Source: Candidatus Multivorans sp. (GTDB lineage: Bacteria > Acidobacteriota > Thermoanaerobaculia > Multivoradales > Multivoraceae). From it: a stretch of 64,000 nucleotides of DNA. Below are positions 45,107-49,580 of the stretch, piece after piece (position 1 is the stretch's first letter; the number at the start of each line of letters is the position of its first letter). The stretch is from NCBI GenBank assembly GCA_965220845.1, contig CBDCRA010000004.1, positions 603,708-667,707 of the forward strand, read 5' to 3'. The notes below the pieces were generated by a model. It saw only the letters and a program-made list of their open reading frames with translations, was not told where the DNA came from and made no database searches. The translations under genes were made by a program, and so were the position numbers.

Positions 45107-46030
45107 CTATTGGTCGAGCACCTGGGCGCGGCGCAAGCCGATCTCCGCCACTTCTTGCTTCATCAGTCTCTCCGGAAAGAAGTAGGCCATCCACTCCACA
45201 AAGGCCCGCCAAACATCCTCTTCCGTGAAGCTCCTCCCTGCCTGTCTCGCCAACTCCTGGAGCTCCTCACTTACCTCCCCACGCGTCACTACTACGTCCT
45301 CGTCGCCCTCCAACAGGCGCGCGCCGAGCGGTATCGCTGTAAGTAGACCACGAACGAGCTCCTTGAAATCCTCCTCTTCGAGACCAGACGGAATGTTCGC
45401 CAGTGCAACGTCCTCAAGCAGCATTTGGTCCGCTGTAGATACAAAGCTCGCCGGAGGCATGGAGTACTGACGATAGGCCCGGTCGGGACGCCTGCTCAGC
45501 GGCTGCCAACGCGTCTCCTCTTCGGCTATGGGGCGATGCGACGTGACAAGAGCGTCCGCCAACCGCCGTACCGCGTTGGCCATGTCCCTGGAAGCGGGAC
45601 GCTCAGCTTCGCCGATTCTCTCTAGCGTGGCCGCGACAAAAGGATCCGTCGTCGACGTCTCCACGAGAAGTTCGATGTTGCCACCCCCAACACCCTCGCC
45701 CAAGCCAGCACTCGTGACGTTCGCCGAACCCGCGAGACATCGGTCTCCGGCGAAGTAGAGCTTCGCGTGGAGTTCATCCACGACTGAAAGCGCGAAACTC
45801 CCTCGCTTCTCTAGCAGACCCAGGATCTCTGGATCCGACACACCCGCAGCCACTTCCCGTGGGCGCCATCGCGTGACGCACCTAACGTGAACGCAGTCGT
45901 CCAGTACGTCGAGCAGCGATTGTAGCGCGCCGACTTTGATGAAAGGAGCGACGATGCCTACGTCGCTCTTCTCATCCGCGAAGAGAGCACGAAGCCGATC
46001 ACCTTCCGTCGCGTCGACTGCAGAGGTCAT
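45107..46030 (-). CDS. phospholipase-D-family (HKD) nuclease
   Basis: HAKLYFAGDRCLAGSANVTSAG is the HxK(x)4D(x)6GSxN HKD motif. Last gene of the helicase-GHKL-PLD operon. Confidence 0.8.
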   Translation of the reverse strand: MTSAVDATEGDRLRALFADEKSDVGIVAPFIKVGALQSLLDVLDDCVHVRCVTRWRPREVAAGVSDPEILGLLEKRGSFALSVVDELHAKLYFAGDRCLAGSANVTSAGLGEGVGGGNIELLVETSTTDPFVAATLERIGEAERPASRDMANAVRRLADALVTSHRPIAEEETRWQPLSRRPDRAYRQYSMPPASFVSTADQMLLEDVALANIPSGLEEEDFKELVRGLLTAIPLGARLLEGDEDVVVTRGEVSEELQELARQAGRSFTEEDVWRAFVEWMAYFFPERLMKQEVAEIGLRRAQVLDQ

Positions 46031-46032
46031 CG

Positions 46033-47961: not shown

Positions 47962-49580
47962 TGCCACACGTCCTCCCAGTTCAGGAACGCCTCCGCCACA
48001 TCGCCGAATCCAGGTAGGCCCGGATCCACAACCGTGACGATCTCGCAAGCTCTCGTGCCTCCGACCTTCTCTCCGCGGATAGCCCGCCCCACCATCTGGC
48101 TGAACAAGACCAGTGACTGCGTAGGTCTTGCGATGACTACTGCACTCGCCTTCGGTGCATCGAACCCGGTCGTCAAGACTCCGAAGTTGACGAGGACGCG
48201 AGGCACGTCGTCGTCGGCCCTGAAGCTCTGAATGGCCTGATCGCGGTCTCTCCGGGGCGTCAGGCCTGTGACCGCTCCACCCCGGATGCCACGCGCAGTA
48301 AGGATGCCCGCTAGCAAGAGCACATGGTCAACACTGGCACCGAAGACCAGGACTCGCCGATGCCCGCCACGAAGCAGTTCCTCGATCGCCTGGAGTACGG
48401 CGGCTAGATACTGCTCACTCATCGACAGCGCAGCGACTATCTTCTCCGGAATCTCCAGGGCAGTAGCGATCCGGGCCGCCTCCCGTTCATCGATTCTGAG
48501 CCCCGGTTCAGCCAAGAGCGTTCTGAAGAACGGCCGAGCCAGGTAGCCCTCCTCAATCAGGTACTTCACAGGATTCCCGCCACCGGGAACTTCCAGAGCG
48601 ACTTTGGTCCTGGAGTAGAGGTCCGCCAGCTCTCCGTCCTCGTCGATGTCAGCCCAGGTTCGACCAGGCGTAGCAGTAAGTCCCAAGAGGGCGCAGCGAT
48701 AGTCGAGAGTGAGGTCGTCGGTTAGACGACGATAGGTTTCCGCGATGCTCTGATGAGCTTCATCGAAGACGACCAGCCGCACACGTGGCGCAAGTCGGAC
48801 GGCCCAGTCGGGGTCGTCCCGCGAAAGCACGGCCCAGCCCTTCGCCAAGCCAGCGACGAGGAACCCGTCCGTGAAGTCGGCCAGCTCGGGCTTCTTGTCG
48901 CCCCACATGGTTCCAAGCTGCAGAGGCCTTGTCCCGAGGTGGGTCCACGCCTCCTTGAATGCCCTCGTAGCTTGATCGAGCAACTCCCTACCGGATGCGA
49001 GCCAGACCACGACCGAAGGTTCAGCGTTGCGTAGGACTTTCGCTACCAAGTGCATGGCGGTCCGCGTTTTCCCCGCGCCGGTGGGAAAGTGCAACACCGC
49101 TCGGCGCTCGTCTTCGGCCAAGAGGGGCAACAAGCGTCGAACAGCCACCCGTTGATGATCGAACAGACCATAGGCGGGCGCGACCGACTCGCTTGGTGCT
49201 GCCTGGGGAACGGCTATTGCCAGGTCCTCCTCGATTAACCCGAAGAAGGCGCGCAAGCCGCTGACCTCGGCCTTGGTCCAGTCCCCCGCGGCCTCGGGAG
49301 ACACGCTTCTTCCAAGGCGGTGTTCCAGTTCGACGCCCTTGGGTCCAGGGAGTAGGCCAAGTACGAGTGCCCGACTCCTCGCCTCGCCCAGAAGAGCACC
49401 GAAATCAACCATCGCCTGCACTGCCTGTCGCAGCCGCGGACCTTCGGCCTCGCCGCCCGAAACGGCGTTGAGCAGCGCCAGGACGCGACTATCCAGGAGC
49501 CGGCGAACCTCTCCATCCGGGATCGCGTCGAGGAATCGGGCTACCGAGAGACCGGGACCACCCATCGCCGTGCCGGACAC
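47958..49580 (-). CDS. superfamily-2 DEXH-box helicase (type III restriction res-subunit-like)
   Basis: Motif I HFPTGAGKT, motif II LVVFDEAHQS, motif III TATP, motif VI QMVGRAIRGE. Confidence 0.85.
   Translation of the reverse strand: MSGTAMGGPGLSVARFLDAIPDGEVRRLLDSRVLALLNAVSGGEAEGPRLRQAVQAMVDFGALLGEARSRALVLGLLPGPKGVELEHRLGRSVSPEAAGDWTKAEVSGLRAFFGLIEEDLAIAVPQAAPSESVAPAYGLFDHQRVAVRRLLPLLAEDERRAVLHFPTGAGKTRTAMHLVAKVLRNAEPSVVVWLASGRELLDQATRAFKEAWTHLGTRPLQLGTMWGDKKPELADFTDGFLVAGLAKGWAVLSRDDPDWAVRLAPRVRLVVFDEAHQSIAETYRRLTDDLTLDYRCALLGLTATPGRTWADIDEDGELADLYSRTKVALEVPGGGNPVKYLIEEGYLARPFFRTLLAEPGLRIDEREAARIATALEIPEKIVAALSMSEQYLAAVLQAIEELLRGGHRRVLVFGASVDHVLLLAGILTARGIRGGAVTGLTPRRDRDQAIQSFRADDDVPRVLVNFGVLTTGFDAPKASAVVIARPTQSLVLFSQMVGRAIRGEKVGGTRACEIVTVVDPGLPGFGDVAEAFLNWEDVWQ

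Follow-up and report, generated by a model that had tools for sequence, protein, structure and literature searches.

A helicase, MORC-like ATPase and PLD nuclease triad as a probable restriction partner of Ssp phosphorothioate modification

Which enzymes cut DNA on behalf of an Ssp phosphorothioate (PT) modification system? At 83.9% of sspBCD loci neither SspE nor SspFGH is encoded, and further partners have been predicted (PMC8092258). The question is raised by a 64,000-nucleotide stretch of contig CBDCRA010000004.1 from Candidatus Multivorans sp. (the whole of which we call the window), where sspABCD adjoins three genes for a superfamily 2 (SF2) DEAH helicase, a MORC-like GHKL ATPase and a phospholipase D (PLD)-like nuclease, hereafter the triad. 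Judging from its sequence and neighbourhood, the triad very probably serves Ssp modification as a cutting partner, one that is widespread and has yet to receive a name. We further propose that it probably works as an ATP-dependent, PT-gated restriction complex partnering SspABCD, a further class beside SspE, SspFGH/DndFGH and PbeABCD.

The triad and its setting in the window

We called genes as open reading frames (ORFs) on window coordinates and read their junctions directly off the DNA. The three adjoining minus-strand genes of the original prediction, in the order helicase, GHKL ATPase, HKD nuclease, lie exactly where it had placed them: the SF2 DEAH helicase gene (47958-49580, 540 aa) opens with GTG, the GHKL ATPase gene (46033-47961, 642 aa) starts with the ATG at 47961, and the PLD-like nuclease gene (45107-46030, 307 aa) follows. 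Since relatives of the helicase align from residue 6-8, the ATG at 49565 is an alternative start. The genes had been described as joined by ATGA overlaps or a 2-nt gap; the gap is present between the GHKL and PLD genes ('TAGcgATG'), while a single ATGA overlap was found rather than several, the 4-nt overlap of stop and start between the helicase and GHKL genes ('caATGAcg'). Upstream on the same strand stands the cysteine desulfurase gene sspA (49799-50983, minus; PADLOC SspA 7e-121; Pfam Aminotran_5 5.5e-75), so that the minus-strand series reads sspA, helicase, GHKL ATPase, PLD nuclease. The placement of sspA about 220 bp upstream, in the same orientation and divergent from sspBCD, held up on measurement: its stop at 49799 is 218 bp upstream of the helicase start (spacer 49581-49798, minus), and its start at 50983 diverges from the sspB start at 51057 over 73 bp (50984-51056, from sequence). 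On the plus strand follow sspB (DUF4007; 51057-52013; PADLOC SspB 2.1e-103; Pfam DUF4007 4.4e-84), sspC (BrxC-like P-loop ATPase; 52013-55384; PADLOC SspC E=0, 1260 bits, full length) and sspD (PAPS-reductase-type ATP pyrophosphatase; 55381-56223; PADLOC SspD 4.4e-133).

All three triad proteins carry the signatures of active enzymes. The helicase matches Pfam ResIII (1.2e-19), Helicase_C (1.1e-13) and DEAD (2.8e-11); among PDB sequences RadD is closest (3.9e-20), and SauUSI (9e-11) and XPB are also matched. Helicase motifs I (GxGKT), II (DEAH), III (TATPGR) and VI (QxxGRxxR) are kept in 69-75 of 75 relatives. The GHKL protein (Pfam HATPase_c_3) has the GHKL+S5 architecture of a MORC-like ATPase; its family profile, run against the PDB, finds MORC2, MORC4, MORC3, SMCHD1 and PMS1, and its predicted structure matches the folds of MORC3, SMCHD1 and MutL. 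The Mg/ATP motifs (E36, D39 and N40; D73xGxG; G101xFGxG) are invariant or nearly so, and K387 and Q388 of the NNKQ loop are kept throughout (93/93). The PLD protein has a single HKD (H88-x-K90...G101-S102-x-N104) within a PLD fold region of residues ~10-145, and thereby shows the HxK(x)nD...GSxN motif on a PLD fold that is looked for in the PLD/HKD superfamily; H88, K90, S102 and N104 are kept in 43/43 relatives. The window protein itself has no Pfam match, and PLDc_2 is matched by 23 of 29 close relatives. The closest folds to its predicted structure are SauUSI, Nuc and BfiI, that is, restriction and non-specific nucleases. The catalytic residues of ATPase, helicase and HKD are thus near-invariant, indicating that the enzymology is intact, and the modelled folds match ATP-dependent restriction enzymes and DNA-clamping ATPases.

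A promoter and terminator scan of 44000-51300 found neither a sigma-70-like promoter nor an intrinsic terminator in the 218-bp spacer, and the number of such sites across that range was not above shuffled expectation. An Rfam scan of 44000-51200 returned no RNA family, and aligning the spacer with two related loci (L001 and L002) revealed no striking conserved element, conservation with L001 being moderate. The ssp and triad genes occupy a lower-GC island (~0.60-0.65 across ~43-62 kb vs ~0.70 in the flanks). No tRNA gene occurs in the whole window, so none anchors an island boundary, and no integrase was seen among the island ORFs examined (~43000-62000); the ORFs at 43227-44850 and 58350-59870 had no family match.

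Linkage to ssp genes and variation between lineages

We then sampled 93 loci of the GHKL clade (24-94% identity), including 12 full-length reference-genome and 80 metagenome loci, built hidden Markov models (HMMs) for nine island proteins and scored all six-frame ORFs of the loci with them. Genes sspB/C/D were present at 66 of the 93 loci, and all 27 loci without ssp end at a contig edge on at least one side. Where the contig reaches 3 kb or more past the triad in both directions, sspB/C/D were found without exception (39/39 loci), as they were with 8 kb or more (24/24). A neighbourhood survey of GHKL homologues had been suggested with the original prediction, along with the possibility that most homologues occur without any ssp or dnd genes; the survey instead places sspB/C/D beside every adequately flanked locus. 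The order helicase, GHKL, nuclease is kept in nearly all loci, and the triad occurs in at least six phyla (Acidobacteriota, Pseudomonadota, Planctomycetota, Bacteroidota, Cyanobacteriota and Spirochaetota), the closest relative genome being a Thermoanaerobaculia metagenome-assembled genome (MAG; L001). By comparison, sspBCD is found in only ~3% of genomes (PMC12914056). Four IMG/VR contigs with enough flank carry both triad and ssp, and annotated plasmids from cultured strains agree with this. Among plasmids, 12 records have the GHKL clade and 73 have SspD, and 11 of the 12 are among those 73; the triad accompanies ~16% of plasmid-borne Ssp systems.

The linkage follows the clade rather than the wider family. 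Members scoring at least 380 bits on the clade HMM have ssp wherever the flank suffices, while relatives below ~270 bits (L135, L141, L142) have no ssp genes. The family as a whole is large: more than 4,000 90%-identity clusters at E<=1e-3 among 8,000 candidates scored, and a further set of GHKL homologues in 989 50%-identity clusters at E<=1e-30, with at least 150 full-length at E<1e-111. RefSeq labels the three proteins 'DEAD/DEAH box helicase', 'ATP-binding protein' and 'phospholipase D family protein'.

Triad and ssp genes are combined in several ways. Some loci are co-directional (sspABCD followed by helicase-GHKL-PLD) and some convergent (helicase-GHKL-PLD facing sspDCB), with convergence to sspDCB on Mesorhizobium pOM4 and Aminobacter pUSP2; the divergent arrangement is that of the window, L001, L002, L124 and L126. 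In a fourth arrangement the triad is embedded among the modification genes (sspBCD...helicase-GHKL-PLD-sspA), as in L076, L077, L127 and plasmid A of Anabaena (Trichormus) variabilis ATCC 29413, where sspB-sspC-sspD, two small ORFs and a DndB-like gene precede helicase-GHKL-PLD-sspA and sspA starts 32 bp after the PLD gene. Treponema saccharophilum pTS1 reads sspB-sspC-sspA-helicase-GHKL-PLD with 11 bp between sspA and helicase, and the sspA and helicase reading frames nearly abut or overlap in L072, L083 and L084. On Agrobacterium tumefaciens pAtCFBP7129b (L131, NZ_CP039925.1, 353848-375149), sspABCD is followed by a convergent SspFGH and then by a helicase-GHKL-endonuclease triad. The desulfurase gene need not be present: in an Acidobacteria relative of 73% identity the triad is directly divergent from sspBCD, and sspA is missing.

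Compared with the window, L003 is 54-69% identical in the triad and 27-45% in SspB/C/D, while L007 is 31-42% identical in the triad and 59-77% in SspB/C/D, which indicates that triad and Ssp module have been exchanged between lineages yet stay linked. Within the triad, PLD is swapped in L096, L099, Agrobacterium and Aminobacter for a ~360-380-aa protein with an 'Effector endonuclease'-like N-terminus (PADLOC PDLC00735; L096:11783-12865, L099:11761-12903, L131:30748-31827, L133:15807-16886), and an HTH+HNH_4 protein takes the helicase position in L075 (7458-8999) and L105 (7412-8836). Extra GHKL-type proteins are encoded just upstream of the helicase in L009 (476-2677, Chloroflexota) and L008 (3833-8187, Planctomycetota), one of them with HATPase_c_3, HEF_HK and HATPase_c. 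The GHKL ATPase is thus the invariant core and the nuclease is exchangeable, which is typical of defence effectors. Because the linkage survives recombination, inversion and phylum-level transfer, it points to functional dependence rather than shared residence in an island, and the coupling of modification to a helicase/nuclease effector that had been suggested from the window gains support from the 39/39 linkage across these arrangements.

Several further genes accompany these loci. The cyanobacterial DndB-like protein (768 aa, Pfam DndB ~1e-7; L129:5848-8154 on Anabaena plasmid A, L076:6030-8333) is encoded between sspD and the helicase gene, accompanied by one or two small ORFs, with sspA downstream of PLD. 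In Agrobacterium, two or three restriction modules stand beside one PT modification module, with a 482-aa gene that lacks annotation separating sspD from sspH. A 539-aa RVT_1 reverse transcriptase adjoins sspD in the sspA-less Acidobacteria relative (L172/L173:1311-2930), a candidate for either a group II intron or a reverse transcriptase associated with defence. Many of the closest relatives (66-72% identity) are MAGs with sponge- or marine-looking record titles (Holophagales SB0665, the co-listed AqS3, Poribacteria); the sponge source is a reading of those titles, and it hints that the module is enriched in symbiont communities.

Beside the window's sspD, and convergent with it, lies orf238 (56360-57076, minus, 238 aa), and next to this a DUF262/GmrSD_N gene (57080-58327, minus, 415 aa; Pfam GmrSD_N 4.2e-17). 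The DUF262 protein has no PADLOC SspE match; it, and not the triad, matches Menshen NsnA (PADLOC 9.3e-29), and no NsnB ABC ATPase was found. The pair recurs in L001 (1-1644) and, co-directional between sspD and helicase, in the gammaproteobacterial MAGs L004 and L006 (6534-8380). These two genes possibly form another effector linked to Ssp, analogous to SspE but split and without DUF1524. Searches of PDB sequences by phmmer with the DUF262, orf238 and PLD proteins gave no useful match.

Comparison with described restriction systems

We next compared the triad with system models from PADLOC (2023), NCBIfam and Pfam, using a PADLOC threshold of E<0.01 for the triad against SspF/G/H. No triad protein matched PADLOC SspE, SspF, SspG or SspH, and neither did any of the 30 GHKL relatives sampled, which gave the same weak, partial PADLOC pattern as the window protein. 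The same models recover the Agrobacterium neighbours at 2.8e-237 (SspF), 5.9e-219 (SspG) and E=0 (SspH), and the SspE models register against the GmrSD-type protein of L128; because they work on these positive controls, the absence of matches is a real negative. NCBIfam has no model for any of the three proteins. Comparison with the SspFGH, Dnd-linked PbeABCD, DISARM and Mokosh models likewise led to no assignment to a described family.

SspFGH was considered as the identity of the triad and is ruled out both by the missing PADLOC matches and by its published description, which names a Walker-A protein and an FtsK-like one, lacking homology to annotated genes, and includes neither a helicase nor a GHKL ATPase nor a PLD nuclease (PMC8092258). 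The triad resembles SspFGH and DndFGH in being a three-gene, ATP-using module coupled genetically to PT modification, and SspFGH in that it can share one sspABCD with another restriction module, as on pAtCFBP7129b. There is, however, no sequence relationship: SspF belongs to the Walker-A proteins, and SspH, with its FtsK/SpoIIIE-like C-terminus, to the FtsK/HerA-type translocases, whereas the motor of the triad is an SF2 helicase. SspE is likewise a restriction partner of SspABCD, but it is a PT-sensing nickase, one protein combining an N-terminal DUF262 ParB-like NTPase with a C-terminal DUF1524 HNH nuclease, domains that the triad lacks; in the window a separate DUF262 protein stands on the other side of sspD. 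The view that the triad is not the described SspE partner was upheld, there being neither an SspE match nor a GmrSD_N or GmrSD_C domain in it.

PbeABCD shares with the triad an HKD nuclease and an SF2 motor linked to PT modification; PbeA is an HKD domain fused to an SF2 helicase, PbeB a small protein, PbeC a CxC ABC ATPase and PbeD DndE-like (PMC10853773). In the triad, by contrast, nuclease and motor are separate with the GHKL ATPase between them, and the partner is Ssp, not Dnd. The helicase matches PADLOC PbeA (9.6e-19) through the motor core only (PbeA positions 246-419 of 672), the PLD protein has no PbeA match, and the island lacks genes for PbeB, a CxC ABC ATPase and a DndE-like protein. 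DISARM, too, couples a helicase and a PLD nuclease to DNA modification, and the PLD protein matches PADLOC DrmC weakly (7.5e-9, 33 bits); no DrmA, DrmB (DUF1998) or methylase match occurs in the island, where a GHKL ATPase is found instead. The resemblance of the GHKL protein to MzaB is confined to the N-terminus (NCBIfam 72 bits against a cut-off of 850, N-terminal ~195 aa only; PADLOC 6.9e-15, N-terminal only), and no other Mza gene is in the island. ZacB of the Azaca system is matched through the PLD core only (PADLOC 3.5e-8), and the triad has no Mko match to Mokosh.

In its parts the triad resembles restriction enzymes that depend on ATP and join a PLD nuclease to an SF2 motor, such as SauUSI, CglI/NgoAVII and PbeA; to these it would add a dimerising clamp of the MutL/MORC type, driven by ATP. 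SauUSI differs in being one polypeptide that is modification-dependent (5mC/5hmC), and CglI/NgoAVII pair with C5 methyltransferases; neither has a GHKL subunit or a PT partner. The nearest architectural precedent is in the operons of Iyer, Abhiman and Aravind, predicted in 2008 to be restriction-modification (R-M) systems, in which a MORC or paraMORC ATPase is combined with an SF2 helicase and a nuclease (HKD in a few) on mobile, island-borne elements (PMC2292703). That paper confirms the earlier statement that GHKL, SF2 helicase and nuclease combinations had been predicted to be R-M-like, and the triad shares with the type a GHKL+S5 ATPase with an operonic SF2 helicase and a nuclease, a likeness supported by the predicted fold match to MORC3, SMCHD1 and MutL. 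The 2008 operons differ in being linked to DNA methyltransferases and Vsr; PT, PAPS-reductase and desulfurase have 0 occurrences in the text (PMC2292703). A DNA methyltransferase is absent from the window island and not consistently present at triad loci. To our knowledge, the MORC, helicase and nuclease R-M class is essentially without experimental characterisation.

Restriction branches coupled to PT are given in a 2025 review as DndFGH/SspFGH, SspE and PbeABCD only (PMC12707154). A GHKL-containing PT partner is not mentioned in the Aravind-group reappraisal of PT systems (PMC10853773), a BREX survey, an embedded-defence preprint or a gut-microbiome PT paper (PMC12914056), and we found no description of a PT-partner module with helicase, PLD, GHKL or MORC components in searchable full text, subscription-only literature lying outside the search. 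What is new here is best described, on sequence comparison, as a probable further, non-homologous Ssp restriction arm, and what is known is the MORC, helicase and nuclease architecture predicted in 2008 (PMC2292703).

A working model and its alternatives

How might such a triad cooperate with SspABCD? In the model that we favour, SspABCD would mark host DNA with single-strand PT and the SF2 DEAH helicase would serve as a translocase on double-stranded DNA. In the way of MutL- and MORC-type ATPases, the GHKL+S5 ATPase would dimerise on ATP, hold DNA in a clamp or loop and thereby license the nuclease; two copies of the single-HKD PLD protein, paired as in Nuc or BfiI, would together make up one active site for nicking or cleaving DNA. 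This putative complex would be gated by host PT, which would block motor or nuclease, so that only a PT-free invader such as a phage would be attacked, following DndFGH/SspFGH logic. A translocation-based read-out has been proposed for DndFGH. Because PT occupies a minority of sites (PMC8092258, PMC12914056), such a read-out is more plausible for the triad than site-by-site checking. We favour inhibition by PT over activation because several lineages show translational packing of sspA with the triad genes, and this packing fits co-expression of a toxic restriction activity with its modification. There is published evidence that two restriction modules can draw additively on a single Ssp module (PMC8092258), and the SspFGH and triad beside a single sspABCD in Agrobacterium match such sharing.

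Several observations weigh against this model. The direction in which PT acts, which we judge rather more likely to be inhibition, is not something that sequence discloses, and domain scans recognised no PT-binding domain in the triad. Family scans assigned no domain to the N-terminal ~130 aa of the helicase, to the helical C-terminal ~240 aa of the GHKL protein or to the helical domain formed by the C-terminal ~150 aa of the PLD protein, and where structural models cover these end regions, their confidence is low to moderate. The 80 metagenomic loci come from the top of a score ranking of 292 hits, a choice that leaves out the most distant members. One locus, L009, is the only one with long (~9 kb) ssp-free DNA on one side; it has 9 kb of such DNA downstream while its contig ends 2.7 kb upstream of the helicase, and it could conceivably be an ssp-free instance of the triad. 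The single transcription unit that had been proposed for sspA and the triad agrees with other lineages, where sspA abuts or overlaps the helicase gene, but not as readily with the window; because of the 218-bp gap, co-transcription here is only inferred from the layout, which makes it plausible.

An effector with no use in the absence of PT would be expected just as much to show strict linkage to ssp, and this leaves a possible, though clearly less favoured, alternative in which the triad is PT-coupled in the manner of SspE. In such a scheme PT sensed on host DNA would activate the complex, which would then, again with a modest chance, act on PT-free DNA or arrest the infected cell and be harmless without ssp. 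SspE itself sets the precedent, its NTPase being stimulated by PT and the protein non-toxic without PT (PMC8092258, PMC12065111), and eukaryotic MORC-type ATPases act downstream of epigenetic marks (PMC2292703). Yet the triad contains no DUF262-like or known PT-sensing domain, and the tight packing of desulfurase and triad genes (11 bp in Treponema, 32 bp in Anabaena, and L072, L083 and L084) argues weakly for the inhibitory direction instead.

We consider it improbable that the triad has an accessory or repair role in the PT pathway rather than being a restriction system, and comparably improbable in its particulars that it processes SspB nicks or oxidatively damaged PT sites or helps to select modification targets. 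A MutL-like GHKL protein with a helicase and a nuclease does mirror mismatch-repair excision (PMC2292703), the best solved relative of the helicase is the repair helicase RadD, and the cyanobacterial triads are embedded among modification genes. However, most Ssp systems do without the triad (~61 of 73 SspD-bearing plasmids), characterised ones modify DNA in its absence (PMC8092258), its nuclease is swapped for unrelated nucleases, and it is shuffled between divergent Ssp types and carried in low-GC islands and on plasmids, as defence effectors are; the predicted fold of the PLD protein, moreover, is closest to restriction and non-specific nucleases. Least probable of all, and in our judgement very remote, is an independent defence system whose position beside ssp reflects nothing but a shared island. 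Defence genes do cluster in islands, this region is of lower GC (0.60-0.65 vs 0.70), and GHKL, SF2 helicase and nuclease operons exist with methyltransferases in place of PT genes (PMC2292703). Island residence alone would nevertheless not pair a module in 100% of cases with a system found in ~3% of genomes; the adjacency holds at 39/39 loci in at least six phyla and several arrangements, the triad can stand with sspD on one side and sspA on the other, methyltransferases are not a consistent feature, and neighbouring paraMORC clades are not linked to ssp. The sporadic occurrence of the triad in Ssp systems, the exchange of its nuclease, the shuffling of modules and the linkage at 39/39 loci thus all speak against the repair and independent-system explanations.

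A PT-gated restriction complex, the reading that we prefer, would bear on both the Ssp and the MORC families. We think it somewhat better than an even bet that this MORC-like GHKL clade is specialised as the core of a further, widespread Ssp restriction arm. Defence by PT depends on having a restriction partner. A non-homologous, strictly Ssp-linked partner in at least six phyla would part-fill the ~84% partnerless gap (PMC8092258) and, if the proposal is true, would explain a good part of the Ssp systems regarded as orphans, on plasmids about one in six. Present labels being generic, the triad is worth adding to defence-annotation tools. It would also make it possible to approach the question of how a MORC-type clamp and a translocating motor separate sparsely PT-marked self from foreign DNA, an open problem common to all PT systems. 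If true, the proposal would make the triad of Anabaena, Agrobacterium, Roseobacter and Treponema the first tractable model for the MORC, helicase and nuclease R-M class, and a concrete test bed for the long-standing prediction that prokaryotic MORC-like ATPases act in restriction. Its GHKL subunit would then be the first prokaryotic MORC-type ATPase to read a DNA-backbone epigenetic mark, paralleling eukaryotic MORCs.

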